Positions 7,177 to 64,000 of a DNA stretch of 64,000 nucleotides are shown piece after piece. Numbering within the stretch: position 1 is the first letter of the stretch; each line of letters starts with the position of its first letter. A program made the translations under genes and the position numbers. The notes below the pieces were generated by a model. That model ran no database searches, was not told the origin of the DNA, and saw only the letters and a program-made list of their open reading frames with translations. Origin of the DNA: Candidatus Xiphinematobacter sp. (GTDB lineage Bacteria; Verrucomicrobiota; Verrucomicrobiia; Chthoniobacterales; Xiphinematobacteraceae); NCBI GenBank assembly GCA_016766635.1, contig CP068473.1, forward strand, positions 242,673 through 306,672, in the 5' to 3' direction.

Positions 7177-7317
7177 GCATTCACTGGATGTTCGGGTATT
7201 CCTCCAACCCACCCCCTTCTCAGCTTGAAGGGGATGGATTGGATAAGATCAATTCCCCCTATTTCGATGCAGTTGCCTGAGAAAGAAATAGGGTAGGAAC
7301 ATCCCCACAGAAAAAAC

Positions 7318-7390
7318 TGGAGGTATGGGGACTTGAACCCCAGACCTTCTCGTTGCGAACGAGATGCTCTACCAACTGAGCTATACCCCC
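7318..7390 (-). tRNA. tRNA-Ala (anticodon CGC)
   Basis: The reverse complement GGGGGTATAGCTCAGTTGGTAGAGCATCTCGTTCGCAACGAGAAGGTCTGGGGTTCAAGTCCCCATACCTCCA folds as a 73-nt cloverleaf. Anticodon loop is TTCGCAA. The G3:U70 alanine identity pair is present. CCA is not encoded. Confidence 0.9.
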
Positions 7391-7428
7391 AAGCAGACCT
7401 TCGCTCTTACCTAAAAAAATTTAAACTG

Positions 7429-8772: not shown

Positions 8773-9390
8773 CTAAGGGCTTCTTTTTAGTTTAAGGGCT
8801 TTCCGGACTAATTCTTCTGAGGAAGCCACCCCGGGCGAGTGTTCTTGTTCTAACACTTGATGAACTGCTCGGCGAGCCTCTTGCTCCCCATAACCCAGGG
8901 ATATTAGGGCAAAGACCGCATCACCAACATTGGTAGAAGCACGTTGACCTGCACGAGCGGATCCAGCTCCCTCCCATTCTGCTACTACGCCTAGCTTATC
9001 CTTTAATTCCAGGATGACCCGCTCAGCTGTTTTCCTGCCCATACCATTGACACATGAAATGGTTCCCAAATCTGAGTGGATCACAGCAGACTTAAAGGCA
9101 TCCACGCTCATCCTGCTCAGGATGGCAAGTGCTAATTTGGGCCCTATACCTGAAACGCGTTGTACTAAGAGCCGAAAAAGATCCCTTTCAGCGGCAGAAG
9201 CGAACCCGTACAGGACATGGCTATCCTCCCGAATAAGTAGGTGAGTCAAAATCTGCACTCTTTCCCCTACCTTTGGCAATTTGCCGATGGTCGATGCGGG
9301 AACATGAACCTGATAGCCAATTCCATGTACATCGATAGTAACCTGCGTAGGTAGTATCTCAGATAAGATGCCTTCCAAAAAGGTAATCAT
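8773..9390 (-). CDS. ruvA: Holliday junction branch-migration complex subunit RuvA
   Basis: Canonical N-terminus 'MITFLEGILSEILPTQVTIDVHGIGYQVHVP' and HhH motifs 'VSGIGPKLALAILS' and 'VNGMGRKTAERVILELKDK'. The ATG at 9390 is chosen over the longer 9495 ORF. Confidence 0.9.
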   Translation of the reverse strand: MITFLEGILSEILPTQVTIDVHGIGYQVHVPASTIGKLPKVGERVQILTHLLIREDSHVLYGFASAAERDLFRLLVQRVSGIGPKLALAILSRMSVDAFKSAVIHSDLGTISCVNGMGRKTAERVILELKDKLGVVAEWEGAGSARAGQRASTNVGDAVFALISLGYGEQEARRAVHQVLEQEHSPGVASSEELVRKALKLKRSP

Positions 9391-40823: not shown

Positions 40824-43800
40824 TTAGTGGATCGTAGTAGTAGAGCGGTTAAAGGCCTCTGTGATATCCCCTCCCCATTCATCAACCACTTGCAGCATTT
40901 GATGGGCAGAGCAGAGGGGGATACCAAGAAGGGCGGGGCGATAACTCAATTCATACCGGATTTCGTAGAGCGCTTTGTCAAGAAGAAAAACCTTGAGAAG
41001 AAAAGTGAAGTCTTTCTCTGTCTGGGGTAGAAAATCTGCCTTAGCAGCACCAGTCAAGTATCCATCCAGGAACGCAGAAGTAATGTGGCTTTTCCAAAGA
41101 TCATACCAGGGAGAAAGCCGGATATGATCCTCTTGGCGTTCGATAGCTAGCAAGGCACTTTGTGCAGCATAATCGAACGAGCGCAACATGCCGGCAACAT
41201 CAACCAGCGCGGGGCGCTTGAGTAGTCGTTCTCCGAACGGACGACATGGTTCTCCCTCGAAGTCGAGGATGACAAAATCCCTACCAGTGTTAAGAACTTG
41301 ACCTAGATGGTAGTCGCCGTGGCTGCGAATTTTTTTTGCTGGTATCTTTGCTCTAAGGAGTCTTGCATAAAAGGCAAGTAGGCGGGGTGTCGCTGCAATC
41401 CAACTCCTGGCACGTACCTGAAGAGACTCCGGGAGATATGGGATTTTGCTAGCTAAGTCCAATTCGGTCCGGCGTGCTAGGCTGCGCAGTGTTTGATAAA
41501 GTGAACGCTGATAAAGGCTAGTAAAAAGCTCCGGCGTAAAAGCTGCCCCTGGGAGTGTTGCCAAGCATCGGTGAAGTTCTCCTGTGCGTAGGCCAAGTTG
41601 GTACGCTCGTTCCGGATAACCGGCCATGAGTTCTGGGAGAATTTTGCTGCCTTCTTCAAGAGGGGGCGCAGCGAGCGCGCCCTCAAAGAAACGTCCAAGT
41701 GAGTCAAGGGTATGTGTCCAAGCATCTCCCTGGTTTGGGACATAAGCAGTGAGCAAGGCAACGGTTCCCTGTTGACTACCACTCATGTACCGTATTTCAC
41801 CACAGTAGCGTGGTACATGTGCAAACCCCACCTTTCCTAAGGCTCGAAGAAGGTCGACATCAGGGTTGCTGCCAGATTCATACCGGCGTAGAAGCTTTAA
41901 GTTAAATTGTTCATTAAAGACAAGTGACGAATTAGATTGTTCACTTCCACACAATCGAGAAGTGGTAGGCTCCGGCAAGATGTCCTCTCCTATACCAAAA
42001 AGTTGTGAAGTTCCACAATGCCACGTTTGTTTCTGCGCGACGAGATTGAGAAAATGTCGATGTACCTCTTGGACATACAGTGCGTCCAAAAGCATTTCAC
42101 CGCTCGCGAAGCAAGCCACAATGGAGTGAGCTGGGGGAGTGCTATCATCGCCAGCCTGATTTCTGATGGTTAGTGGAACTACATAGATCGCGGTGTGTCC
42201 TTGTGTAAAGGCCACCTCCGTCAAGAGAATCTGTGTGTTCGGGTCCTCTTTCGGGGAAAAACTTCCTGTAATACGAACCTTCTGTAACGCCAATTGTTTT
42301 TCTCCAAACCAACGGCACCTTTGCATATAGTCCGGGAGAACTGCGCGCTCCAGCGTACGATGCAATTTTGGTGTCCATTCGGCCACCTCAGCAAGCAGGG
42401 GAGGGACATGATGATCGGTTAACACTCTCTCCTCTTCTACAGAAAGGGGGTGTAGTTGCAACCAGTAAAACCCATGCGGCCCGAGAGTAAAAAGATAAGG
42501 AAGATTGCTAATGATAGGGAATCGTGTGTTGCCGAAAAGTTCCTCTGGAAATCGATCGTGGAATTCGGAAAGATCCAAGGAAACTGCCTGGGAATAACGT
42601 GAAAGGTTGGCTACTATGAGCAGGACCTGGTCTTCTCCATATCGACGGAGGTAGGCTAACACCTTAGAGTTCTCTGTAGAGAGGAATTGAATACCTCCAA
42701 GCGCAAATGCCAGATGTTTTTGGCGAATTCCTAGAATTCGCCGCATCCACCAGAAGAGTGAGGAAAGATTCCTTTTTTGCACGTCCACATTCACTGTTTC
42801 ATAGTGAAATTCAGGATCTATGATAATAGGCAAAAATAACTGCTGTGGATTAGCACGTGAAAACCCAGCATTGCGGTCGGCGCTCCACTGCATCGGCGTG
42901 CGTACTCCATTACGGTCTCCTAAATAGAAATTGTCCCCCATGCCGATTTCATCTCCATAGTACAAAATAGGAGTGCCAGGCAGAGAAAGTAGGAGGGATT
43001 TCATTAATTCGATCTTGCGGCGGTTATTTCCCAGCAATGGGGCTAGCCGGCGACGAATGCCCAAGTTGATGCGAGCCCGGATGTCTTCCGCATAAAGACG
43101 CACCATGTAGTCTCTCTCCTCATCAGAAACCATTTCTAGCGTCAATTCATCGTGGTTACGGAGAAAAATAGCCCACTGACAATTTTCTGGAATAGTGGGG
43201 GTTTGATCGAAAATGTCAGTTAGTGGGAAGCGATCCTCCATCTGTAAGGCCATAAAGAGCCGTGGCATAAGGGGGAAATGGAATTCCATATGGCACTCAT
43301 CTCCTGCTCCAAAATATGCAGCCGCGTCTTCTGGCCATTGGTTGGCTTCCGCCAGGAGCAAACGTCCTGGAAACTTTTCATCCACATGTCGACGCAAGCG
43401 CCGTAGGAAAGCATGGGTTTCTGGCAAATTCTCACATGAAGTCCCCTCCCGCTCAAAGAGATATGGGACAGCATCTAATCTTAATCCATCAACTCCTAAC
43501 CCTAACCAGAAGTTCACTACGTTGAAGACCGCCTCTTGAACGGAGGGATTATCAAAGTTTAAATCCGGCTGATGGGAGTAGAACCGATGCCAGTAATAAG
43601 CCTGCGCTACTGAATCCCAGGACCAGTTCGATTTTTCGAAATCACTAAAAATGACACGCGCATCCTCATAACATTCGGTGGTGTCGCTCCAAACATAAAA
43701 ATCTCTCTCAACTGACCCTGGAAGAGCCAAACGTGAACGCTGGAACCAAGGATGCTGGTCTGATGTGTGGTTCAAAACAAGCTCTGTAATGACATGCAAT

Positions 43801-44081
43801 CTTCGTTGATGGGCTTCTGCTAAAAAATTACGGAAATCATCCAGCGTTCCATAGCTTGGGTTCACTGATAGGTAATCGGAGATATCGTAACCATCATCCT
43901 TTAACGGAGATGGGTAAAATGGAAGGAGCCAAATAGCCGTTATTCCTAGATCTTCCAGATATCCTAGCCTTTTACATAGTCCCCGGAAGTCGCCGACCCC
44001 ATCGGCTGTGCTATCGCAGAACGAGCGTACATGTAACTCATAGATAACTGCGGTCTTGAACCATGGTAGATCTCGTTCCAT
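40824..44081 (-). CDS. treS: Bifunctional trehalose synthase / maltokinase (TreS-Mak/Pep2 fusion)
   Basis: 1085 aa. The N-terminal GH13 part has '[29 protein letters not shown]', '[25 protein letters not shown]', '[13 protein letters not shown]', 'LLAEANQWP' and '[11 protein letters not shown]'. The C-terminal kinase part has '[10 protein letters not shown]' and '[10 protein letters not shown]'. Confidence 0.9.
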
Positions 44082-44098
44082 AGGAATACCTTACTTGG

Positions 44099-44770
44099 CT
44101 ATAAAGAATGGGTAAGATGCGACAGCCATTGATTAAGGTAAAGGCAGAGGCGCATTTTCGTTGGAAACGAGAGCAAAGTGTCCTCTCTTCCCAGAAAGAC
44201 GAAGTTGCCTCCCAAGGCGGGGCCATTGACGATACACGCGTCTGTTGCGCTCTCTGTAATCTGTTGATACCCTATGGAAATGGCTTCTTTAGAAAGCCCC
44301 TTCAGTTCATATTTCCACCCCACAATATAACTGTGAGGGAACAAGCCTCGGAGTTTCCGGACGATTTTCGGAGTTGGCTCTAGAGTTAGGTGTATACTTC
44401 CAGAACGACTGCCTAGTTTCTTCGGTATAACTTCGACGCCATGGCTGTTTTCCACGCGCACTACTCGGAAATCGCAAAGAGCAGCCGCGTGAAAGACACC
44501 CACTATGCTGGGGAGTTCCGATAACCGGTTAAGACATTTCTCCAGGTCCATATTAGTCGAGAATGGAAAAATATTGGCATGAGCGGGGCGCGGATAGGTG
44601 GCACCCGTTCCCCGTAGACAGAATACTTCCCATCCTTTCTCAGTTAGGTGGTTACATAAAAGTGTTCCTAGTTCTCCAGTTGAAAAATTAGTGATGCGTC
44701 TCACTGCATCGATGGGTTCAAAAGCAGGGCCACAGGTGACGATGATCTGTCCCTGAGAAAACTTTCTCAT
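44099..44770 (-). CDS. coaB: Phosphopantothenate--cysteine ligase domain protein (stand-alone CoaB)
   Basis: 223 aa. 'IIVTCGPAFEPIDAVRRITNFSTGELG', 'HAAALCDF', 'KKLGSRSGSIHLTLEPTPKIV' and 'VGWKYE' parallel the CoaB half of Dfp/CoaBC. No flavoprotein (CoaC) half is attached or adjacent. Confidence 0.75.
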   Translation of the reverse strand: MRKFSQGQIIVTCGPAFEPIDAVRRITNFSTGELGTLLCNHLTEKGWEVFCLRGTGATYPRPAHANIFPFSTNMDLEKCLNRLSELPSIVGVFHAAALCDFRVVRVENSHGVEVIPKKLGSRSGSIHLTLEPTPKIVRKLRGLFPHSYIVGWKYELKGLSKEAISIGYQQITESATDACIVNGPALGGNFVFLGREDTLLSFPTKMRLCLYLNQWLSHLTHSL

Positions 44771-45082
44771 ACTAGAAGAGATAAAAAAGAGAGATGAAAG
44801 GGAACTAAATACGCAAAGACTTGAGTTATGCCTCTTACAGAGAGATGTCGGAGGATGGGCGGCTTGTCGAATAGCTTTTTTTGGAAAAAAATTCCGTTCG
44901 ATGAATCTTGTACAGGCGTACCGCTTGCTAAGTCTAGGCTGGAACTTGTCCCTTTACAGTAGCTATCAGTAGCTATCCAAAGCTATCTTTCTGTCGGATA
45001 GATGCGAGATACGACAATTCGGGGATAAAAGACCCCTCGGGGAAGCCGCGTACACGTACAAGTAAAGGGTAAGGGGTCAGCG

Positions 45083-45155
45083 CGCGCCTGGCAGGATTCG
45101 AACCTGCGGCCAATGGATTAGAAATCCACTGCTCTATCCCCTGAGCTACAGGCGC
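45083..45155 (-). tRNA. tRNA-Arg (anticodon TCT)
   Basis: The reverse complement GCGCCTGTAGCTCAGGGGATAGAGCAGTGGATTTCTAATCCATTGGCCGCAGGTTCGAATCCTGCCAGGCGCG folds as a 73-nt cloverleaf with anticodon loop TTTCTAA. Confidence 0.9.
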
Positions 45156-45626: not shown

Positions 45627-46484
45627 ATGGAAACTAGTCCATTGGTAATCGCTGGAAAGCAGTTTCGGTCCAGGCTGTTGTTAGGAACAGGGAAGTTTTC
45701 CTCCTATGCTGTGATGCAGCAAGCCATGGAGGCAAGTAGAGTAGAAATTGTGAAGCGTTCCGGCGTGCCGACCTCTCCGGAAGGAGAGACCCCTTTGCTG
45801 CTATTCTTAGCTACATAGACCCCTAAACGTTACCTTGTACTTGCTAATACAAGTGGAGCCATGAATGCAAAAGAAGAAGCGATTCGCTTGGCTCGTCTTT
45901 CCACTTCCGCTGGGTTGCCAAAGTGGATTAAATTGGAGATCCATCCTGAACCTCACTACTTACTCCCGGATCCCATAGAGACGTTTTTAGCTGCGGAAAG
46001 TCTCACTCAGGAGGGGTTCGTCGTCTTGCCTTACAGAAATGCCGATCCAGTTTTAGCCAAGCGCTTGGAGGAAATCGGTGTCGCTGCAGTGATGCTACTA
46101 GGGTCACCCATCGGAAGCAATCGGGGCTTGGAGAGCCGAGAGCAAATCAGGGTTATCGTTTCACAGGCTACCGTTCCGGTAATAATTGATGCTGGTATTG
46201 GCACTCCGAGTCATGCTGCTGAAGCTATCGAAATGGGAGCAGACGCTGTTTTAGTTAATACTGCTATCGCAGTGGCGGGGGATCCTGTGCGGATGGCCCA
46301 CGCCTTCCAGCTTACTGTAGAAGCTGCCAGGGGAGCATTTGAGGCAGGCTTACCAAAGACAGAGGAGGATGCGGTAGCAAGTAGTCCGCTTGAAGGGTTT
46401 TGTCATCAGAGCTCTACAGGGGGAAGACCCAGACCTTTCCAACAGCTAGCAGAGAGACTGTTGCGTTGGAAGTGTTGGAAGTAG
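45627..46484 (+). pseudogene. thiG: Thiazole synthase ThiG, interrupted by two compensating frameshifts and an in-frame TAG
   Basis: Frame 0 45627..~45751 gives '[21 protein letters not shown]...EASRVEI'. Frame +2 45752..45823 gives '[24 protein letters not shown]'. Frame 0 again from 45822 gives '[25 protein letters not shown]...WIKLEIHPE...LLPDPIETF...GFVVLPY...PIGSNRGL...[31 protein letters not shown]'. Joined, these align colinearly with ThiG. As written, frame 0 hits TAG at 45816-45818. Confidence 0.75.
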
Positions 46485-53265: not shown

Positions 53266-53481
53266 TTAGTACATGTCCTCCTGTGCCACGCTGGTTTGCA
53301 CTCGGCTAGCAAGGAGCTGTGCATGTACAACTATCTCGCTTACGTCGGCGTTGAAACGATAGCTATGGCAATTAGGGCACGTTGCTGCTTCAAGCATTAG
53401 GATTGAATCACAACCCTCGCAAATCTTGTACCGCTCTGGATGTCCGATGATCTTTGCAGCACGCTCCGCTCGCTCCTCCAT
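53266..53481 (-). CDS. Small zinc-ribbon protein (hypothetical)
   Basis: 71 aa from the ATG at 53481. It has two CxxC pairs 'CEGCDSILMLEAATCPNCHS'. No known family recognised. Confidence 0.4.
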   Translation of the reverse strand: MEERAERAAKIIGHPERYKICEGCDSILMLEAATCPNCHSYRFNADVSEIVVHAQLLASRVQTSVAQEDMY

Positions 53482-53775
53482 ATGGGTATTTCCTGGGTTA
53501 GAAGACTTACACATCGGGCCAGTCTTCACCAAAATAGCCTGGACCACAACTCTAGAGGTAAAGAGGGCCCCAGGGGTGGAGAAACTTCAGGCAGGCAAAG
53601 CTGTTTTTCTGAACTGCATGCCAGCGAGTGGCCGCAAAAGTCCACCCCCGCGCAATTGATTTTTCTTTGGAGAGTCTTTGGAGAGAGCTGGCGATATTCT
53701 GTTTCCAGTTCTTTTAATAGTTTTAGGGTTACACGCAGTGGAGGTCGTTGCAATAGCCATCTCTCTAGAGAACAT

Positions 53776-54426
53776 ATGAGTTTTCCCTTCAAGTATAAAG
53801 ATGAGAGGGGTTTGGATATCTCCAGAAAGTATCCCTTCGTTCCAATCAATGGCCAAGTTTTGGGATTTGGGGAGGTCCACCTATGGGGATGGCTCTTTTC
53901 CGGAAGAAAAGACACTTGTGCTATGGTCCAACGTATCGCTGGTGTCTACTCAGGAAGTACGCCCAGAAAGGTGCGCTTGAGATATTTGCCTGGTGGAAAA
54001 CCGCACTTTGGGAGGAAGGGACCTCATTTCAGTCTTTCCCATACAGATGGCAGGGTTCTTGCAGCGTTTTCCCGATTTTCTATAGGACTAGACATAGAAA
54101 AGGAAAGCCGCTCTGTCTCTGCAAACAAGATTGCCCGCCGATGCTTTCATTCTTCCGAATGTCTCGCTTTAGCGTCCTGCCCTCAAGAGAATCTTCAGAA
54201 GATTTTTCTTCGCATGTGGGTTCAAAAGGAAGCCGCTGTTAAGTTAGCTGGTGAGGGGATAGCTCTTGGGCTAAAAAAGATCAAGATAAAGACAAATACG
54301 CCTTCCTGGCGGGTATATCGACAGGACAGGAGGCTTCATATAAAGGAAATCAACCCCTGGCCAGGGATTGTAGGTGCTCTGGCATCGGAGTGCCAGTTTA
54401 TAGTGACAGTTTTCCGAGAAAACTAA
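53776..54426 (+). CDS. 4'-phosphopantetheinyl transferase, Sfp type
   Basis: 'GGKPHFGRKGPHFSLSHTDG', Mg-binding 'IGLDIE' and 'WVQKEAAVK' (W/FxxKEAxxK). The ATG at 53776 gives about 216 aa. The 53440 extension has no family support and overlaps the antisense zinc-ribbon ORF. Confidence 0.8.
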   Translation: MSFPFKYKDERGLDISRKYPFVPINGQVLGFGEVHLWGWLFSGRKDTCAMVQRIAGVYSGSTPRKVRLRYLPGGKPHFGRKGPHFSLSHTDGRVLAAFSRFSIGLDIEKESRSVSANKIARRCFHSSECLALASCPQENLQKIFLRMWVQKEAAVKLAGEGIALGLKKIKIKTNTPSWRVYRQDRRLHIKEINPWPGIVGALASECQFIVTVFREN

Positions 54427-54702
54427 TAACGGTCCCCGCATGTTCTGAGGTCTTCATGTTGCTTGTCTCGAAAGTGCGCGGTTTGGCTGCATACTCCGGA
54501 GGCAATAAAAGCTACCTCTTTAATTGCTCTGCCGGCACGCGTAGAATTGCGCTTGGTCCCTTTGGGCAAGGGTAGGCTTCTGTGGTACGTTGCGTCGTAC
54601 TGTTCCATGCTCCATGCTCTCACTTTCCCTAGCAGGGGTAGGAAATATACTAGCAATTCCGGGAACCCAGAACATTAGAACATTTTGAGACCGACCGACT
54701 TC

Positions 54703-57474
54703 ATGAATGCCCATATCCCCTCAGCAACTTACCGTCTGCAGTTCCACGGTGCATTTACCTTCGCAGATGCCACTGAAATTCTGGGCTATCTCCATAGCCT
54801 GGGTATTACAGACATCTATGCCTCCCCCTACTTTCAAGCTGGGGTGAAAAGCACACACGGGTATGATATCGTCAATCATAATACCCTGAACCCAGCGCTT
54901 GGTAGCACCTCTGACTATGAGTATTTTATCTCGGAGTTACGTCAGCATCAAATGGGGCAACTACTCGATTTTGTACCTAACCACATGGGTATAAATGAGT
55001 CCTTAAATCGGTGGTGGATGGATGTGCTAGAGAACGGCCCTGCCTCGGTCTATGCAAACTACTTTGACATTGACTGGCACCCGGATAAAGCAGCCCTTTC
55101 CGAGAAAGTTGTGCTTCCTATCCTAAATGACCGCTATGGAAAAACTCTGGATAGTGGCGATCTCACACTGGAACGGGAAGGGGGCAATTTCTTTATTCGT
55201 TACCGGTATTCTGCTACCAAGCTTCCGGTATGTCCAAGCACCTATCCCATGATCCTTCGGAGGAGCCTTAGCTACCTCCAGGGCCGGAATGTCACTCAGC
55301 TTAGTAAGGTCATCGATCGCTTAAGGAGTGCCTCTCCTCCAAGCGTTACAGCCAGAGCACAATTAGAAGCCCTCATCCAGAGCGATGCAGAGATACGCCA
55401 TGCTGTGGACCTTGCAGTAGCTGAATTTCTAGGTGACCCTAATGCCCCGGAAACATTCGATGCTCTTCATCAACTCTTGGAGGGCCAGGCCTATCGGCTG
55501 AGCTACTGGCGCATGGCGGCGGAAGAAATCAACTATCGCCGATTTTTTGACATTAATAGCTTAGCTGCACTCCGTGTAGAAATTCCCCAAGTATTTCAAG
55601 CTTCTCACCAACTGCTTTTTAGACTTCTTGCTCACGGTGACGTGACCGGATTACGCATCGATCACGTGGACGGTCTGTGGGATCCGAAGGGGTACTTGTG
55701 CCGCCTTCAAGAAGGCTATGCCAGCCTCCTCCAATCTTCCTCACCACTTTACATAGTTGTGGAAAAAATACTTAATATGTCCCACGAGAAGCTTCCCTCT
55801 GATTGGCCAGTTTTTGGAACCACAGGTTATGACTTTGCCAATCAGGTAGTGCATCTGCTTATCGATGCAACTGCTGCAGTGCATCTTACCGAAACCTATT
55901 GGCGCTTTATTGGCAATTCCACTTCCTTCTCTAATCTTCTCTATGAGAAAAGGCGCTTGGTCATAGAGACCTCTTTCCAGAGTGAAATACTCTCTTTGGG
56001 AAAACTTCTTGATGGACTTTCTGAGCTTTATAGAAATTACCGGGATTGTACCCGTAGTCTGTTGACGAATGCCGTCAGAGAAGTTATTGCCTGCTTTCCA
56101 GTCTACCGTACTTACATAACGGCAACCCATCCTCCGTCAGAATTTGAAGAGCGCTCCATTCTACGCGCTATAGAAATAGCGAGTAGAAAGAATCCCACTA
56201 TTGACAAACCTGCATTTGACTTTTTACGCAGGCTTCTCCTTGTGGACCCGCCAAAGAAACTCTCTCCTAAGGAGCGCGATGCTCACTTTCACTTCATAAT
56301 GAAGTTTCAGCAATGTACCGGACCGGTGGCAGCGAAAGGGTTAGAAGATACGGCTCTATATCTTTACAACCGGCTGATTGCGGTCAATGAAGTAGGAGGC
56401 AGTCCAGACATATTGGGTCTGAGTCCTTCTGAGTTTCACCAGCTCAACCGCGAGCGTACCCCCCATGCGCTGCTTGCTACTTCCACACATGACACCAAAC
56501 GCAGTGAGGATGTGCGAATGAGAATCGCCGCAATTTCTGAAGTGCCAGGCCAGTGGCGCAGGGCCGTTCTTAGGTGGAGGCAGATTAATAAGAAATTTCG
56601 AATCCAGGTCGGAGATGAAATGGCCCCTTCTCCTAATGAGGAATACTTCCTCTATCAAACCTTGCTAGGGATGTGGCCACTAGACCTCTCCTCCGAAGAT
56701 TGGGAGAATTTTGTTGACAGAGTTCAAAAATATCTTGTGAAGGCCCTGAAGGAGGGAAAAGTTAATAGCAGCTGGACTCAGCCCAATGAAGAGTGGGAGC
56801 GAGCGGTGGCGCAGTTTGTCGAGAAAATCTTGGATGCTCAGTCGGGGGCTACTTTCCGGAGGGCATTCATTCCTCTCGCTGAAGAAATTGCTCGCCTTGG
56901 TGCTTGGAACTCACTCACCGAAACAGTACTGAAATGCACGGTGCCCGGGATTCCAGACTTTTACCAAGGCACCGAAATTTGGGATTTTAGCCTTGTCGAC
57001 CCTGATAATCGTCGTCCGGTGGACTACGCTTTGCGTCAACGGCTCCTAAATTCACTGTCGGAGATTTCCCCAAGGGAACTGCTCTCTGAATGGAAAAGTG
57101 GACGTATCAAACTCTTCATTATCCAGAGGCTACTACAATTTCGCCGCAGTTATACTAGTTTCTTTCGCATGGCAGACTACCAACCCTTGCTCTCACAAGG
57201 GTCGCGGAAAGATCATGTTATTTCCTTCCTGCGTCAGCATGATAGCATGACCCTCTTAGTTATCGTTCCCCGCTTGACGGCCAAGCTATGGCTAGTACCC
57301 TGTGACAGTCGTATATGGTCTGGGACAAAGATAGTCTCGGAATCGTTTATTGGCTCCTGGAGAAATATTTTGACGGAGGAGCTGTATCGCTGCAACCAGC
57401 AGGAAATGCGCATCTCAGATGTTTTGACGCATCTGCCTGTTGCGGTTCTCTACCGTAGAGATTCCTGCTCCTGA
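54703..57474 (+). CDS. treY: Malto-oligosyltrehalose synthase (TreY)
   Basis: 'PSATYRLQFHGAFTFADATEILGYLHSLGITDIYASPYFQA...THGYD', 'DFVPNHMG' and 'GLRIDHVDGL', about 920 aa. ATG at 54703 (the TTG at 54685 is also possible). Confidence 0.9.
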   Translation: MNAHIPSATYRLQFHGAFTFADATEILGYLHSLGITDIYASPYFQAGVKSTHGYDIVNHNTLNPALGSTSDYEYFISELRQHQMGQLLDFVPNHMGINESLNRWWMDVLENGPASVYANYFDIDWHPDKAALSEKVVLPILNDRYGKTLDSGDLTLEREGGNFFIRYRYSATKLPVCPSTYPMILRRSLSYLQGRNVTQLSKVIDRLRSASPPSVTARAQLEALIQSDAEIRHAVDLAVAEFLGDPNAPETFDALHQLLEGQAYRLSYWRMAAEEINYRRFFDINSLAALRVEIPQVFQASHQLLFRLLAHGDVTGLRIDHVDGLWDPKGYLCRLQEGYASLLQSSSPLYIVVEKILNMSHEKLPSDWPVFGTTGYDFANQVVHLLIDATAAVHLTETYWRFIGNSTSFSNLLYEKRRLVIETSFQSEILSLGKLLDGLSELYRNYRDCTRSLLTNAVREVIACFPVYRTYITATHPPSEFEERSILRAIEIASRKNPTIDKPAFDFLRRLLLVDPPKKLSPKERDAHFHFIMKFQQCTGPVAAKGLEDTALYLYNRLIAVNEVGGSPDILGLSPSEFHQLNRERTPHALLATSTHDTKRSEDVRMRIAAISEVPGQWRRAVLRWRQINKKFRIQVGDEMAPSPNEEYFLYQTLLGMWPLDLSSEDWENFVDRVQKYLVKALKEGKVNSSWTQPNEEWERAVAQFVEKILDAQSGATFRRAFIPLAEEIARLGAWNSLTETVLKCTVPGIPDFYQGTEIWDFSLVDPDNRRPVDYALRQRLLNSLSEISPRELLSEWKSGRIKLFIIQRLLQFRRSYTSFFRMADYQPLLSQGSRKDHVISFLRQHDSMTLLVIVPRLTAKLWLVPCDSRIWSGTKIVSESFIGSWRNILTEELYRCNQQEMRISDVLTHLPVAVLYRRDSCS

Positions 57475-59336
57475 CTCACACGAGAAAAGAGTACCACCAG
57501 CCCCTTTTCCAGGAAGGCGATTCTTCCTTCTGAAGGGATATACTCTATGCCACCTTTACCTCCAAAACGTTTTTCCTCCGTAGAAAAAACGAGTGACCAC
57601 TTTCTTCCATCAGAGTCGAAGTTTCCTGTATGCCCTCCCATAAGATCAAAGACCACTAAGCAGTCAGCTCTCTCTCCTCCATAACAGATTGCCCCAGCTC
57701 CCCAAGGCAGGCGATGGATGCTCCAGTTTTCTCTTGTAGTAGGGATGGGGAGGACACGGCGGCGCAGACGAAGGCACGCGGCATAAAGAGAGCGTACTTC
57801 TGCGTGTTTGTCTTCTTGAGATTCGCACCATTGCAGCTTTGATCTTAGGAAGGATTCTTCCATCTGAGGGTCAGGAATTTTTTGCCCACACATATCTAAG
57901 AACTTCTGGAACCCAAAAAACTCCCTCTTCCGCCCCTCTGTAACTTTCCTTCCCATTTCTGTGTCGTGGTCGGTAAAATAGAGAAATGGAGTAGATGCAG
58001 CCCACTCCTGCCCCATAAACAAGAGAGGAGTATAAGGGGAGAGGCAGAGCAGAGCGGAAAGAGCACGATACGCTGGGGGAGAGATTTGCTGAGATAAGCG
58101 CTCCCCTAGCGCCCGGTTCCCGACCTGATCATGGTTGGAGATGCAGTGTACAAATTGACTTGGAGGTAAGTGGCGGCATGGTGTTCCTCGAGAGGAGCCG
58201 GTGCGCCGTGAAATTTGCCCCTGATACAGCCATCCATTTTCCAGGACAGAAAGGACTTCCGTGAGCGAGCCGTCAAAATCGGCAAAATAGGAGGATTGTT
58301 CAGCCGTCTGAGTTATTCGTAACGTGTGATGGAAATCGTCTGCCCAAACCCCATCAAACCCCATACCTCCTTCTGAACGGTTGCCGAGTAAGGACTCGAG
58401 ATTGCGTTCGTCCTCCGCTATCATGTAGCCGTTGTTTCTGTGGACCGCCTCTGACATTTCGCTGAGGATGTGAGTCCGGGAACTGTCCCGTATCTCGTGT
58501 GTAGCATCCAATCGAAACCCATCAACGTGAAATTCTTCCATCCAGTAGAGAAGATTGCGTAAAAAAAACTCGCGGACAGGACCAGACATTTCTGAGTCAA
58601 AATTTATAGAGTCCCCCCAGGGGGTGTGATGTTGTGGGTTGAAGTAGTATGGGGTGAAGCGAGAAAAATAGTTTCCGGATGGCCCGAGGTGACTGTAGAC
58701 CACGTCTAGAATTACGGCGAGGCCATGTAGGTGTGCGCAGTTAACTAATGCGCGAAAATCGTCGGGCGTCCCATAGCACCTTGCGGGAGCGTAGGGAAGG
58801 ACACCATCGTATCCCCAGTTTCTTCTTCCAGGAAAGTCGGCAACCGGCATGATCTCTACAGCCGTAATTCCCAGTTCTTTCAATAGGGAAAAACGCTCAC
58901 ATGCACCCAGAAACGTTCCCTCCAGAGTGAAGGTGCCAACGTGTAGCTCGTAAATTATGAGGTCCCTAAAAGGGGGGCGGCGCCAGCCACTATCTGACCA
59001 AGAAAATTTCTTGGGATCTACTACTAGGGAAGGACCGTGTACATCTATCTGTTGAGCACGAGAGGCTGGATCCGGGTAATACCCAGTCCTCCCTTCTAGA
59101 TCTAGACAATAGAAGTAGGCGTCCCCTGCTTGCCCTCCTTGATCTAATCCTGTATGGAACCCCTTACTATTCCGCTGAAGTGGAAGGATGCGCGTCCCCT
59201 CCCCGCATAAGGTATGAATTTTTACCCGGACCAACTGTATGTCTGGTGCCCATACACAATAGACGACCTGTCCGTTTGGAAGTATTGTTGCCCCAGGTGG
59301 GGATGGGAAATACTGCAGCAGACCCCCCACTAACAT
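57450..59336 (-). CDS. treZ: Malto-oligosyltrehalose trehalohydrolase (TreZ)
   Basis: GH13 blocks 'IYELHVGTFT', 'GITAVEIMPVADFPGRRNWGYDGV', 'VILDVVYSHLGP', 'GFRLDATHEI', 'MIAEDERN' and 'SNHDQVGNR'. Confidence 0.9.
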   Translation of the reverse strand: MLVGGLLQYFPSPPGATILPNGQVVYCVWAPDIQLVRVKIHTLCGEGTRILPLQRNSKGFHTGLDQGGQAGDAYFYCLDLEGRTGYYPDPASRAQQIDVHGPSLVVDPKKFSWSDSGWRRPPFRDLIIYELHVGTFTLEGTFLGACERFSLLKELGITAVEIMPVADFPGRRNWGYDGVLPYAPARCYGTPDDFRALVNCAHLHGLAVILDVVYSHLGPSGNYFSRFTPYYFNPQHHTPWGDSINFDSEMSGPVREFFLRNLLYWMEEFHVDGFRLDATHEIRDSSRTHILSEMSEAVHRNNGYMIAEDERNLESLLGNRSEGGMGFDGVWADDFHHTLRITQTAEQSSYFADFDGSLTEVLSVLENGWLYQGQISRRTGSSRGTPCRHLPPSQFVHCISNHDQVGNRALGERLSQQISPPAYRALSALLCLSPYTPLLFMGQEWAASTPFLYFTDHDTEMGRKVTEGRKREFFGFQKFLDMCGQKIPDPQMEESFLRSKLQWCESQEDKHAEVRSLYAACLRLRRRVLPIPTTRENWSIHRLPWGAGAICYGGERADCLVVFDLMGGHTGNFDSDGRKWSLVFSTEEKRFGGKGGIEYIPSEGRIAFLEKGLVVLFSRVSQEQESLR

Positions 59337-59417
59337 GATACTGGCACTTTTATAAGGTTCAAAGGTCTAAATCAGTCGCTCAGTCGCATTGCGCTTCACG
59401 AGAGCAACAACATTACA

Positions 59418-59489
59418 TGGGTTGACTGGGACTCGAACCCAGAACCAACGCCTTAAAAGGGCGCTGCTCTACCGTTGAGCTATCAACCC
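59418..59489 (-). tRNA. tRNA-Lys (anticodon TTT)
   Basis: The reverse complement GGGTTGATAGCTCAACGGTAGAGCAGCGCCCTTTTAAGGCGTTGGTTCTGGGTTCGAGTCCCAGTCAACCCA folds as a 72-nt cloverleaf with anticodon loop CTTTTAA. Confidence 0.9.
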
Positions 59490-60402
59490 AATCCTTTTTG
59501 AGATCCGGAACTCTTCGCTTTTACTTCAAGGCTTTCTTGCCAAAAAAACCAGCGTTGTTTGAAACTCCTCCTATTGTGCCCACACCAGCATGCATCACGG
59601 ATTTGAACAATCCTCCTGAAGCCGGTCCCTTTCTGTCTTTTAAAAACCTGAGAAACGGACACATTTCCAAGTGGCACTCTAACACCTTGGCAAGGGCCTT
59701 ATTGGTATCAGCAATTTAGAAAAAGGGAATATCGTATTTACCGTGCACCGTTTTTTGTGCAAAAAAACCCCACCCAGACAATCTTGGGATTTTGCGCCTT
59801 AAAATCTTCAAATTCTCACCTTAAGGCAGTTAAGGTCTGTGCAGTGTAATCTAGAGGCATTCTCTTCCTAGATAAGTAAGAACGCTACAGGTACAGGCCT
59901 TTCTTGGTAAATCCCGCCCAGTCTATCCGTTTTTTCTGTTCTGATTAATGGCTGTGCCTGCTGGGGCAATGGCACCAGTAAGTGGAAAAATCTGCTCTGG
60001 AGCAACAGGAATAATGGAACGGGAAGACACCAAGGAGACCTCAATTAAGAAAAGTACAGATGCTCGTCCTATGTATGCCAGAGGGAATAAATCTTTAATG
60101 CCACCTTGACTTGTACGTACCTTTTTCCCAGAAGTGTCTTTCTATAAAAATAAGTAATTCTCCAACAAAAGGTACAAGCATCCTGGCAAATGTCCCTAAC
60201 TGTCCCGGGGGGACAGCCTGTCGCTCTAAGCATGTCGGGGCGCACCATTTCCGGCTGCCACGCGACACTACAGCAGTACCACATACCGCGAGACTCAAAA
60301 ATCCCACTTTCCTCTTCAAAAGGCGTGGATTCTAGTTTCAGGAACGGCTTACCACCACTTATTCTTAGACCTGGTTCGACTTGTTCCTCCTCTCCCTCTT
60401 CT

Positions 60403-63400
60403 ATGCACGAATTTCCAGCCTCTCCCATGCAAGAAGCCATCTATGCCGCTTCCACAGCAGACACCCCCCATGGAACAGCCATAACTGGCAACATACAGAT
60501 TTCTTTCAATTTTGGAGAACCTGTTGATATTCAACTGCTCCAGAAATCTTGGAAATGGGTGACACGACGGCACGGCCTGCTCCGCTCCAGTTTCAGTAAG
60601 AAAACTGGCGACATACTCTCTTTCCACGAGCATGAAGACTGTGAGACTACCTGGCGTTCCCTTGACTGGTGCAATCTTTCCGGCGAGCAAATAAGCACCC
60701 AATGGAACCGACTACAGGCTGAAGATGCAACGGAACCCTTCACCCTCCTACAACCGCCCCTATTACGCTTCTGCTCTATTAAACTCCCCAGAGGAATGCA
60801 CCACTTTCTTTGGACCTGTCACTCAATCTTGCTGGATAGGGAATCCATCTTTTTGGTGTTACGTGATTGGCTGGTTTCCTATGAGGAGCTCTCTTACGGA
60901 CGTCAACCTTCTTTACAAGAGCCTCCCTCCTATGCAGCTGCTATCGGTGCTGTTGAAAGCATAGACCCTGCAGCTGCTCGTCGGCACTGGAAGTGTCTCT
61001 TGCAACGGGTTGATCCTCTGCCATTGATAGCCACTTCCCCCCTTCAGGCGGATTGTACCCCTGTGAGCCCACCGTTAAAACACGAGGACTTCCTCTTGGA
61101 AAGGGAAACTACTAAGCGACTTATTCATTTAACTAATCTGGCAAACACTTCCTTACCTGTTCTCCTTGCGGCGGCCTGGGGTTTAGTTCTTGGACGTATC
61201 AGCATAAATGGAGAGGCAATGTTTGGTATCTATCGCTCTTGCCGCCATCTTTCGGGCCCACAGGCTGCAGAATCGGTCGGTCTATTTGAAAGCTTCCTGC
61301 CCTTTCCTATTCAAATTCCAGAGGACTTAACTTGTGAAATGTGGTTACGCTCCCTGCAGGAGGTTGAAGTTAACACTGAGCCGTTCCTTATAAGCAATAT
61401 CCAAGAAGTATGGAACCACCTTGGTCGTTCCGACCCCTTTCCTCAACTTAGCAGCACCCTAAATTTCCTACCGGAAAGTATTAATAGTCGCATTCATGCT
61501 TGCCTACCCCAGTGGATGCGTTTTGACGCTCGCATACACCAATACTCTCGGTTTCCTATACAGGTTCTGGCTTGCGGAGAGGAACGCCTCTCTATTGGTA
61601 TTGAATACCTTCCAAGTAAGATTTCTCCACGGATCGTGCACCAGCTATGTAGACGTCTCTTCAGAGCACTACACCACCTTACAGAGCCGAATACACCAAT
61701 TTCCGAGATTAAGCTGAATCTCCCCAGTGAAGAGGAGGAATCAGTTCGTCTAGGGATGGGAGTATCTCGCTCAGTGCAGCCAACCTCACTCGATTTATTT
61801 ACAGCCCTACAGAGAATCGCCCAACTGTACGGCTCCTGCACATTTGTGGAAAGGGGAAATGATTCTTTAAGTTTTTCTCTAATGGAAATCTATTCCAGTC
61901 AATTTTCCACGTTTTTAAGAAGTCGTTCTATAGGCACTGGAACAGTCCTCGCACTGATGATGCCCTCTTCCCCATGGACGTTGGTTGCCCTACTCGGGGC
62001 ACTAAGGGCTGGTTGTACTTGCTTGCCACTAGATCCAGAAGCATTGCCTGATGAACTCGGGGAGTATCTCTCCAGGCATCAAGTGTCTACTGTGATAGCC
62101 GACAGGGGCAAGGAGGTTTTTCCTGGAAAAGGAAAGATCCAACAAACTCTGCTTGTACTGGAGGAGTCTCTGTGGAGAAGAATCCTCTCCCTTCCAAGGC
62201 AAGCGTTCATTACTGCTCTTTCCCCTGCTAGTCCCATGGTTTCTGTCCTACACTCCAACAGGGATCGCAGGGTAATTTCTTATGCAGAGCTACAAACTGT
62301 CGTTCAAAATGCCATCTGCGCCTACAATGTACAGCCAAACGACCGGATTCTTTGCCACCACCTCCAGGGTAGTGCAGCTGCAATAGAAGAATGTTTCGTC
62401 GCCCTCCTTACTGGAGCTACACTGATTTTCCCAGAAAAAAATATTAAAAGCACACGCACCGCCTTTCAGGAAACTCTTGAGTCTGTGGGGATCACACATC
62501 TACGCCTTACAGCTGCTTTCTGGAGTCAATGGATACACTATCTTAGTGAGTTACACCATTCTGCCCCTCGTACTTTACATCGGATAGTAATCGAGGCAGG
62601 TCATGTCTCGCCTTCGATCATCTCCAAATGGGAAGAACAGAACACTGGACAAGTCGAATGCGTTGTATTCTACAGCCCCTCAGAATTCTTGGGGGGCGGT
62701 GTCGTGACTGAAATCCTTGGCACGCCACAGCTCTGCAAGAGAGGACTAGTCTGCGGCCGCCCACAGCCGGGTGTTGCAGTATTTCTCGTGGATAGCCATC
62801 AGCGGCAGCTACCTCCTTACTCTCCCGGAGTGCTTGCATATTGTCTATATAAAAACATTCAGAGTGGGATGTGTGAGGACGGGAAGGCCGTAGCTGCGAC
62901 CATGGGCGGTCGCACCTGGCAGCTTTCTATAACAGACGAATGGGCACAATGGAACTCGGAGGGACAACTGGTACTGATTAGTCAACCCTACAGTCAGCCC
63001 CCGGGTGTTTTGGATTGGATAACCTTGCGCAGGATAGAAGGTGCACTTACTTCTCATCCGGACATTATGGATAGCGTAGTCCGCAGCTTTACTCCGATTG
63101 GGGAGCAGTCATCCTGTTTGGGAGCATGGATTGTTTTGCGCGACAGTCACGTGACATCGTTACCAACTACGCTAGATCCCCATTTAAAAGAGCACCTTCC
63201 AAGAGAACTGATACCCACGCACTTTGCACTTGTTACCCGATTCCATTTGGATCCTTTCGATCAGATAAATTCACTATTTCTAGCATCTCCAAAATTTCAG
63301 CCTATACTCGCTTCAACCGTTCCTCCCCAAGGAGAAGTAGAGGCTGGTGGTTACCTCCATCCCAATCCTGCCACAGGATCCCTACGACAGTCACCTATCG

Positions 63401-64000
63401 TAACACTACAAACAGGAACCAGTGGAAGTATAGCACTCTACTTCATTCACGCCGGCCGTGGTCTCGCCGAAGACTACCTCCCCATAGCTCAATCCTTGTC
63501 CAACAAATATGCCATACACTGTTTTATGGTTTCTCCTAGCAAACTATCAGCTTCCTTGGCTACCGTAGAGGAGATCACCTGCAGTTCGGCACTCGTTCTT
63601 CGAAAGCATCTCTCGGGTGATTTTGTTCTTGTCGGTATTGGTGTTGGGGCAGTGTTTGCTTGGGAGCTAGCTCATCAATTAGATCAGGAGGACGAAAAAA
63701 GCTTGTCCCTTATCCTTTTTGACATCCCTCCTATTGGTCGTAAACCTGCAAGGTGGCTACGAGGTCTAAGAAAAGCGTTCCTTAGGGAGAAAACAGGTCC
63801 AAAGGACCTGGTAGAAATAATTGCCGAATATCAACCCCCAGCGCTCCAGAGAGGACCTTATTTTTTTGCTAGAGGGAAACCTGACCCCCAGTGGTGTCAG
63901 CGCTCCCCAATGGGAATATGGAGCCAACTCTATCTCGAGGGAAGATCCCCACTGGACAAGCCAGCCGAGGTGGCTAGCCTCCTCACTGGGGTTCTTTCTG
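60403..64000 (+). CDS. NRPS-like multidomain protein: condensation domain / degenerate adenylation-like domain / thioesterase-like domain; 3' end beyond window
   Basis: Frame 1 is open from 60154 to the window end, so it is absent from the ORF track. Candidate ATGs are 60190, 60232, 60403 and 60427. C-domain: 'FPASPMQEAIY' (C1), 'LLRSSF' (C2), 'WTCHSILLDRES' (C3), 'VGLFESFLPFPIQI' (C5). A-like: 'LRAGCTCLPLDPE' (A2), 'FYSPSEF' (A5-like), 'LPRELIPTHF' (A9-like). TE-like: 'IALYFIHAGRG...FVLVGIGVGAVFAWELAHQL'. Confidence 0.8.
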   Translation, partial: MHEFPASPMQEAIYAASTADTPHGTAITGNIQISFNFGEPVDIQLLQKSWKWVTRRHGLLRSSFSKKTGDILSFHEHEDCETTWRSLDWCNLSGEQISTQWNRLQAEDATEPFTLLQPPLLRFCSIKLPRGMHHFLWTCHSILLDRESIFLVLRDWLVSYEELSYGRQPSLQEPPSYAAAIGAVESIDPAAARRHWKCLLQRVDPLPLIATSPLQADCTPVSPPLKHEDFLLERETTKRLIHLTNLANTSLPVLLAAAWGLVLGRISINGEAMFGIYRSCRHLSGPQAAESVGLFESFLPFPIQIPEDLTCEMWLRSLQEVEVNTEPFLISNIQEVWNHLGRSDPFPQLSSTLNFLPESINSRIHACLPQWMRFDARIHQYSRFPIQVLACGEERLSIGIEYLPSKISPRIVHQLCRRLFRALHHLTEPNTPISEIKLNLPSEEEESVRLGMGVSRSVQPTSLDLFTALQRIAQLYGSCTFVERGNDSLSFSLMEIYSSQFSTFLRSRSIGTGTVLALMMPSSPWTLVALLGALRAGCTCLPLDPEALPDELGEYLSRHQVSTVIADRGKEVFPGKGKIQQTLLVLEESLWRRILSLPRQAFITALSPASPMVSVLHSNRDRRVISYAELQTVVQNAICAYNVQPNDRILCHHLQGSAAAIEECFVALLTGATLIFPEKNIKSTRTAFQETLESVGITHLRLTAAFWSQWIHYLSELHHSAPRTLHRIVIEAGHVSPSIISKWEEQNTGQVECVVFYSPSEFLGGGVVTEILGTPQLCKRGLVCGRPQPGVAVFLVDSHQRQLPPYSPGVLAYCLYKNIQSGMCEDGKAVAATMGGRTWQLSITDEWAQWNSEGQLVLISQPYSQPPGVLDWITLRRIEGALTSHPDIMDSVVRSFTPIGEQSSCLGAWIVLRDSHVTSLPTTLDPHLKEHLPRELIPTHFALVTRFHLDPFDQINSLFLASPKFQPILASTVPPQGEVEAGGYLHPNPATGSLRQSPIVTLQTGTSGSIALYFIHAGRGLAEDYLPIAQSLSNKYAIHCFMVSPSKLSASLATVEEITCSSALVLRKHLSGDFVLVGIGVGAVFAWELAHQLDQEDEKSLSLILFDIPPIGRKPARWLRGLRKAFLREKTGPKDLVEIIAEYQPPALQRGPYFFARGKPDPQWCQRSPMGIWSQLYLEGRSPLDKPAEVASLLTGVLS

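Follow-up and report, generated by a model that had tools for sequence, protein, structure and literature searches.

What becomes of a nonribosomal peptide synthetase (NRPS) module once its canonical active sites are gone and its reading frame is still open? The question is raised by a gene at the end of a 64,000-nucleotide stretch of contig CP068473.1 (assembly GCA_016766635.1, positions 242,673 to 306,672 of the forward strand), hereafter the window, from Candidatus Xiphinematobacter sp. This organism is a verrucomicrobial endosymbiont of Xiphinema dagger nematodes and has a reduced genome of ~0.92 Mb (917,278 bp); a GC content of 47.7% and 817 proteins have been reported for the Xiphinematobacter genome (PMC4607532). 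The gene, C*-A*-TE*, encodes condensation-like (C), adenylation-like (A) and thioesterase-like (TE) domains in that order. We consider it probable that its product descends from an NRPS termination module (C-A-T-TE, with T the carrier domain), stands alone, has lost its chemistry and has been kept as a probably non-catalytic binding or scaffold protein.

The C*-A*-TE* coding sequence occupies 60403-64000 on the plus strand, where frame 1 of the window contains 1,199 codons without a stop. At the base composition of the window, the chance that 1,199 random codons would be free of stops is ~1e-26. The encoded protein is 100% identical to P0001, a protein of 1,201 residues named 'AMP-binding protein [Candidatus Xiphinematobacter sp.]', and its start, MHEFPASPMQ, is common to the orthologues. 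The initial annotation of the window, made from the sequence alone, had described a continuous frame-1 protein of ~1200 residues with NRPS domain order, and both the open frame and the Pfam order agree with this; all of the peptide strings that it quoted were found in the translation. Its statement that the gene runs off the window needs correction, because only the last two codons and the stop of the 1,201-residue protein lie beyond the window end.

Pfam searches identified three superfamilies, each above its curated gathering threshold: Condensation (PF00668) at residues 3-445 (E 1e-35 to 9e-37; 123.6 bits against a cutoff of 30.6), AMP-binding (PF00501) in two stretches (E 5e-29; 101.6 bits against 29.9), and Thioesterase (PF00975) at residues 1012-1113, which was marginal (28.9-33 bits against 26.4, the value of 33 being obtained when the domain was scanned alone). 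The protein gave no Pfam match to PP-binding (PF00550) or AMP-binding_C, and NRPS and acyl-CoA ligase models of NCBIfam matched it only far below threshold.

An AlphaFold prediction made with the eight-member family alignment alone had a predicted local distance difference test score (pLDDT) of 41 and was discarded. The usable model, for which 34 canonical NRPSs were added to the family alignment, had a mean pLDDT of 82.3 and a predicted template modelling score of 0.75. In this model the condensation-like domain (residues 1-445, 60403..61737) and the adenylation-like core (residues 446-860, 61738..62982) are well defined, with pLDDT mostly 85-95, as is the A-sub-like domain (residues 861-960, 62983..63282; pLDDT 86-91). 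The Pro/Ser/Thr-rich linker that follows (residues 961-1005, 63283..63417) is disordered at residues 969-995 (pLDDT <50). The thioesterase-like alpha/beta-hydrolase domain (residues 1006-1199, 63418..63999) is shortened; its alpha/beta core is of moderate confidence, and the 'lid' and C-terminal loops are low. The best Foldseek matches were the termination modules SrfA-C (2vsq), ObiF1 (6n8e), EntF (5ja2) and AB3403 (4zxh), with E values of 4e-69 to 3e-57 over ~1,300 aligned columns, TM scores of up to ~0.8 normalised by target length, and root-mean-square deviations of 4.7-5.5. C-A didomains were also among the best matches, consistent with the assignment of the condensation-like domain. The predicted structure confirms that the C, A and TE fold of an NRPS termination module is retained.

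Retention of the fold is accompanied by loss of the catalytic motifs. In the condensation-like domain the C3 motif reads C-H140-S141-I-L-L-D145-R-E-S (60817..60846, plus strand). We set its register by HMMER against McyB and TycB and by MAFFT against more than 30 NRPS C domains, and the alignments were ungapped and anchored on both sides. For example, FLWTC-H-H-LVL-D-GW of P0018 aligns with FLWTC-H-S-ILL-D-RE of the family. In the canonical HHxxxDG motif three residues separate the second His from the Asp, and in the family four residues lie between His140 and Asp145. The first His of the motif is generally regarded as structural and the second as catalytic. His140 is therefore the first, structural His; it and Asp145 are kept, whereas the second His is replaced by Ser141, the Gly by Arg, and the Trp by Glu. 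Family-wide the motif is H[S/P]xxxD[R/E], with Arg/Glu-Glu/Lys in place of the Gly-Trp pair. Most members have Ser at position 141, and two lineages, P0002 and P0003/L008/L009/L011, have Pro, so the position of the catalytic His is not even fixed. The initial annotation had correctly recognized the retained Asp and the Gly to Arg change, but its register was one residue off, and the second, catalytic His that it considered kept is Ser or Pro. The domain also keeps Ser148 and the C2 motif RHGLLRSSF. On these alignments the C-like domain is disabled by canonical criteria. We also noted that P0018, a 994-residue C-T-TE protein from Pirellulales, has a C3 region, FFLWTCHHLVLDGWC, that in context is strikingly near the family's HFLWTCHSILLDRES, with the catalytic His intact; P0018 may be a relative of the ancestral type of the C-like domain.

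For the adenylation motifs, seven family members were aligned with 11 canonical NRPSs, of which ten are C-A-T-TE proteins and one is an A-T-TE protein; a second comparison used 34 references. The A3 P-loop is reduced to SVLHSNRDRRVI (62242..62277), four residues shorter than YTSGSTGKPKGV; across the family L-x-[S/P]-[N/D]-[R/G/E]-[D/E/K]-R stands in place of the canonical YTSGSTGKPKG, and the S/T-G-S/T-T-G element is absent. At A4 (62362..62382) the sequence is LQGSAAA rather than SFDAS, such that FDxS becomes GSAA and the Asp for the substrate alpha-amino group is missing. A5 (62665..62685) reads VFYSPSE instead of NxYGPTE, and (V/I/T)FYS(P/F)(S/F)x in the family. An invariant Glu replaces the Asp of A7, and nothing recognisable is left of the A8 hinge GRxDxQVKIRG. 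At A10, Gln954 stands in place of the Lys and is also invariant in the family (FDQIN, nucleotides 63250-63273). The initial readings of A3, A4, A5, A8 and A10 agree with the alignment to the 11 canonical NRPSs.

Some of the replacement residues are themselves fixed. Canonical A cores have 74 conserved columns; the family retains the canonical residue in 15 of them, has a different but invariant residue in another 15, and varies in the other 44. Little or no variation is seen in the blocks KSTRTAFQ, THLRLTAAFWSQW, IEAGH, FYS and GIGxGAxFAWELAxQL, the first four of which sit at the place of the substrate pocket in canonical A domains.

The carrier domain is missing altogether. A single gap of ~70-80 columns falls exactly over the carrier, including its GGxS motif, of the 11 references, and what is left at the site is a 45-residue Pro/Ser/Thr-rich linker with 9% invariant columns and the highest dN/dS (ratio of nonsynonymous to synonymous substitution rates) of the protein. 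A hidden Markov model (HMM) built from 33 reference carrier domains and run with filters off yielded 0 matches at E<=10 in 14 family sequences, while held-out controls scored 83-100 bits; when the window was translated in six frames, the HMM gave no credible match there either. Pfam, the alignment gap and the carrier HMM all bear out the original impression that the protein has no carrier domain.

In the thioesterase-like domain the nucleophile elbow is GIGVG (63634..63648), in which the Ser is replaced by Gly1080, a family-invariant residue; across the family GWSFGG becomes GIG(V/T/M)GA. Profile alignment to solved thioesterases (6vap, 7r0x and DEBS TE) gave the same Ser to Gly assignment, as first read by eye. 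The acid position is variable (D/A/E), and a segment of ~15 residues that contains the catalytic His is deleted, leaving the triad without both Ser and His. We set aside the idea that GIGxGA is a Rossmann GxGxxG/A motif, which rested on by-eye similarity only. Neither profiles nor alignments revealed canonical A3, A4 or A10 motifs, a GGxS motif or a TE Ser in the protein. As far as the motifs can tell, the four NRPS functions (adenylation, thiolation, condensation and thioester cleavage) are disabled by canonical criteria.

The same protein is found elsewhere. Seven more full-length proteins of 1,182-1,202 residues share 74-44% identity with it and have the same three Pfam domains; the next match after the family, at 26% identity, is a conventional NRPS that has its carrier domain, and identity to any canonical NRPS is 16-26%. 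Scans of genomes and metagenomes added copies, bringing the family to nine distinct lineages, all intact at 1,182-1,204 residues and with the same motif substitutions. Four of the nine belong to a Xiphinematobacter-type clade, from which L001 and L006 were checked and found to be syntenic with the window; the remaining five are larger, apparently free-living Verrucomicrobia metagenome-assembled genomes (MAGs), sampled from groundwater and from soils in Denmark and the Amazon. Read from this distribution, the losses predate the split between endosymbiont and free-living members. An exhaustive profile search of 1.84 billion representatives gave two family clusters among the 150 matches listed; the other 148 are multi-module NRPSs of 3,700-7,800 residues whose summed scores swamp the listing, so that more distant carrier-less relatives may lie hidden below them. 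Five further loci that match the pattern, L005 (Victivallales) and L012-L015, have the canonical motifs of ordinary NRPSs; they were rejected from the family and used only as comparators. One of these, the ordinary A-T-TE protein of the Victivallales MAG (L005 2648-5269, plus strand), has a TE helix, FAWELAHQL, that is identical to the family's and accounts for its match to the pattern.

Selection on the gene was estimated with YN00, relying only on pairs with dS of ~0.7-1.3, since distant pairs were saturated or failed. Between the window gene and its 74%-identical orthologue, dN/dS was 0.19 (bootstrap 95% confidence interval (CI) 0.16-0.23) at an unsaturated dS of 0.75. By region, this endosymbiont pair gave 0.18 for the C-like domain (CI 0.13-0.23), 0.20 for the A-core (CI 0.16-0.28), 0.16 for A-sub (CI 0.07-0.31), 0.17 for the TE-like domain (CI 0.10-0.26) and 0.28 for the linker (CI 0.10-0.61). 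Two free-living members gave 0.125 (CI 0.10-0.15), with 0.09 for the TE-like domain. Thus the values for the C-like, A-like and TE-like domains range from 0.09 to 0.20, and none of the bootstrap replicates for them reached 1. For comparison, the neighbouring genes FabH, TatD, PPTase, TreY and TreZ in the same endosymbiont pair had dN/dS of 0.09-0.20. The fraction of family-invariant columns is likewise similar across the domains (C-like 0.23, A-core 0.24, A-sub 0.27, TE-like 0.28) and drops to 0.09 in the linker. By sequence, the protein qualifies as a pseudoenzyme, in which residues essential for the ancestral reaction are lost and purifying selection persists. We conclude that it is very likely dead for NRPS chemistry yet functionally maintained.

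The DNA next to the gene provides a comparison with sequence that is not maintained. Within the ~900-bp upstream spacer (59491-60402) we found a relic of a Bcp/AhpC-type peroxiredoxin with an in-frame stop (59662..59817, minus strand). It was identified by tblastn with three intact orthologous peroxiredoxins, at 40-47% identity over 45-52 residues and with E values of 3e-7 to 1e-6 when spacers were searched and 1e-5 for the whole window. The genome of the 74%-identical orthologue has a different peroxiredoxin fragment, and L001 has a stop-interrupted relic at ~9156-9266 (minus strand). In three free-living relatives the sole common neighbour of the gene is a divergently transcribed Bcp/AhpC-type peroxiredoxin, intact and matching Pfam AhpC-TSA, and the rest of the surroundings are unrelated. 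Because the intact peroxiredoxin is the upstream neighbour in these three relatives, the pairing with C*-A*-TE* is, on gene order, ancestral, and it is the endosymbiont that has lost the peroxiredoxin. The adjacent relic indicates that unselected genes decay in this lineage; the 3.6-kb gene next door did not. A scan of the upstream spacer for promoters and terminators found nothing.

The syntenic endosymbiont-type genomes have TreY/TreZ and tRNA-Lys on one flank of the gene and convergent ABC-transporter genes on the other. Partner genes had been anticipated downstream in the initial annotation; these transporter genes and the unrelated free-living contexts speak against that expectation. No NRPS, polyketide synthase (PKS), carrier or tailoring partner genes were linked to it in five genomic contexts.

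How, then, should a maintained but canonically dead module be explained? It could be a slowly decaying pseudogene whose frame is still open by chance, and indeed all canonical active sites are lost and the window does hold decaying genes, namely a truncated ThiG and the peroxiredoxin relic. We give this hardly any credence: the stop-free frame is very improbable by chance (~1e-26), members in nine lineages down to 44% identity are intact at 1,182-1,204 residues rather than riddled with stops, dN/dS is 0.1-0.2 with tight bootstrap intervals, and the neighbouring true relic illustrates the fate of sequence without selection in this lineage. The pseudogene reading is effectively refuted, as the initial annotation had argued from the open frame; the substitutions shared by the nine lineages and a dN/dS within the neighbours' range now add to that argument. 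The gene might instead encode a trans-acting condensation enzyme that makes amide or ester bonds with free-standing carriers, such as the acyl carrier protein (ACP) of fatty-acid synthesis, with the dead A and TE domains as structural support. The retained His140, Asp145, Ser148 and C2 motif would fit this idea, free-standing acyltransferases of the C family such as VibH and PapA5 exist, and an Sfp/HetI-type 4'-phosphopantetheinyl transferase (PPTase) is retained 6 kb upstream. However, His140 is the structural first His, the catalytic second is Ser or Pro, and Gly-Trp is Arg/Glu-Glu/Lys; the equal constraint on the A-like and TE-like domains would be unexplained; no carrier-protein gene is linked in any examined context; and the fatty-acid ACP needs a PPTase anyway. 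We therefore regard such an enzyme, which the initial annotation had listed among possible repurposed roles, as quite improbable, and of those roles a scaffold or binding protein as the most plausible.

The main rival is a neo-functionalised enzyme that performs some other chemistry on a free small molecule in the remodelled A pocket, the C tunnel or the TE cleft. In favour of such a protein are the strong and even purifying selection on all domains, the invariant new residues at 15 canonical A-core positions, the location of the most conserved blocks at the pocket site, and the numerous invariant His, Cys and Glu residues; the linkage to a thiol peroxidase gene in free-living relatives could hint at redox chemistry. 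On the other hand, neither Pfam nor NCBIfam detects a known catalytic motif beyond the three degenerate NRPS domains, the shortened P-loop and missing adenylation Lys make chemistry of the ANL type (acyl-CoA synthetases, NRPS adenylation domains and luciferases) very unlikely, position 141 varies between Ser and Pro, and the endosymbiont lost the peroxiredoxin neighbour but kept the C*-A*-TE* gene. Taken together, we consider a new enzyme unlikely, although it is by some way the most serious of the alternatives. Several points weigh against our own preference for a binding or scaffold protein. A protein that lacks the canonical residues may still catalyse some reaction, and C651, H652, E662, E663, H699, H712, E731 and H734 are among many invariant His, Cys and Glu residues that could form a new site. 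The dN/dS of the gene lies at the upper end of its neighbours' range. The canonical NRPSs in the AlphaFold alignment bias the model to a canonical fold, and the window gives a view of 64 kb of the genome, such that partners may be encoded elsewhere. Finally, the proposed role is a prediction from sequence and a modelled structure. For these reasons the assignment of a non-catalytic binding or scaffolding role is tentative, and we hold to it with less confidence than to the loss of NRPS chemistry.

With this in mind, a binding or scaffold protein could have arisen as follows. A termination module would have lost four chemistries in an ancestor: in C, the catalytic second His; in A, the P-loop, the amine-binding Asp, the hinge and the Lys; the carrier, by excision; and in TE, the Ser and the His. 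These losses would have occurred once, before the Xiphinematobacter endosymbionts parted from their free-living Verrucomicrobia relatives, and the three-domain protein would then have been under purifying selection, including through genome reduction to ~0.9 Mb. A rigid C:A platform together with the TE-like domain might bind another protein, a small ligand or both in the former active-site regions, which have been remodelled. The protein would work as one unit, and the candidate binding regions would be the blocks of the former A pocket and the former nucleophile elbow with its helix. That the proteins form a new pseudo-NRPS family, exapted in this way to a non-enzymatic platform for proteins or ligands, strikes us as a close call that falls just short of even.

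Other features of the window are of interest in their own right. The PPTase gene lies at 53440-54426 (plus strand); its ACPS domain covers only residues 214-287 of a 328-residue open reading frame (ORF), and the true start is probably much later, the L001 orthologue being called at 196 residues. It is retained under selection (dN/dS 0.20), presumably to modify the fatty-acid ACP. Two routes for the synthesis of trehalose, one of the main sugars of nematodes, are retained in this tiny genome, a TreS-maltokinase fusion (40824-44081, minus strand) and TreY with TreZ (54685-57474, plus strand, and 57450-59336, minus strand), the latter two being convergent with a 25-nt overlap; these routes may be relevant to the nematode host. 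A tRNA-Lys(UUU) gene (59417-59490, minus strand) is located between TreZ and the peroxiredoxin relic, and other tRNA genes of the window are tRNA-Ala(CGC) at 7317-7391 and tRNA-Arg(UCU) at 45082-45155. The 207-residue ORF at 45861-46484 (plus strand) matches ThiG profile positions 75-247 of 247 (2e-71) and has an unrelated C-terminal tail; from this match it encodes a thiazole synthase truncated at its N terminus, in keeping with the pseudogene of that enzyme that has been reported for Xiphinematobacter (PMC4607532). A 223-residue ORF at 44099-44770 (minus strand) matches the DFP family (PF04127, 1e-22), of which L006 has a 226-residue member. In one free-living relative a transposase fragment (HTH_21 and a partial rve core; L003 7520-8080, minus strand) lies ~1 kb past the peroxiredoxin.

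The main text of the Xiphinematobacter genome papers that we consulted (including PMC4607532) and the accessible part of the PMC7857533 supplements make no mention of the gene. The open-access literature yielded neither an account of a C-A-TE protein that is both stand-alone and fully degenerate nor anything linking pseudoenzymes with nonribosomal peptides, and inactive adenylation domains led only to papers on ubiquitin E1. NRPS domains usually mark secondary-metabolite biosynthesis, and in genome mining this gene would be labelled an NRPS fragment or an 'AMP-binding protein'. A whole module stripped of its chemistry yet selected across nine lineages would be an example of a bacterial multidomain pseudoenzyme. 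It also suggests that Xiphinematobacter, whose nematode hosts are crop pests and vectors of viruses, has a function specific to its lineage, and for NRPS structural biology it may offer a natural 'architecture-only' module, a C:A:TE platform without a carrier. If the exapted, non-enzymatic role is true, it was important enough to outlast reduction to ~817 genes while the adjacent peroxiredoxin was discarded; should the protein turn out to be a cryptic enzyme, its reaction would be a new one for the ANL, C or alpha/beta-hydrolase scaffolds.

Among known systems, the NRPS termination modules SrfA-C, EntF, AB3403 and ObiF1 share the domain order and predicted fold, with homology over the three retained domains. 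In contrast to them, C*-A*-TE* has no carrier, no C catalytic His, no A3, A4, A8 or A10 motif and no TE Ser or His, and its gene is stand-alone, with no biosynthetic cluster in the five contexts. For the TE-like domain, the N-terminal half of the alpha/beta-hydrolase core, including strand, elbow and helix, aligns with type I and type II thioesterases (type II TE 6vap, PKS TE 7r0x and DEBS TE), but in the family this domain has GIGxG for GxSxG, a variable acid and a deleted His segment, and is ~60 residues shorter.

VibH and PapA5 are free-standing condensation-family acyltransferases that keep the catalytic His of HHxxxDG. They resemble the C-like domain in being a C fold outside a canonical module and without an in-cis carrier, whereas the family lacks the catalytic His and carries two more large dead domains under selection. 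A nearer parallel is the X-domain of glycopeptide NRPSs, a C fold in which HHxxxDG has changed to HRxxxDE and which is a non-catalytic platform for the recruitment of P450s (PMC6565677). The family motif H[S/P]xxxD[R/E] is analogous to that of the X-domain but not identical with it: both retain the first His, lack the catalytic one and have a charged residue where the Gly would be. The X-domain differs in that it is within an active assembly line, in the last module and beside a loaded carrier, and has Oxy P450s as partners; no P450 or NRPS genes are near C*-A*-TE* in the examined contexts, and no entry named as an X-domain appeared among the PDB sequence matches. By analogy, the X-domain is the closest functional counterpart that we can name, with a resemblance that is convergent rather than one of membership.

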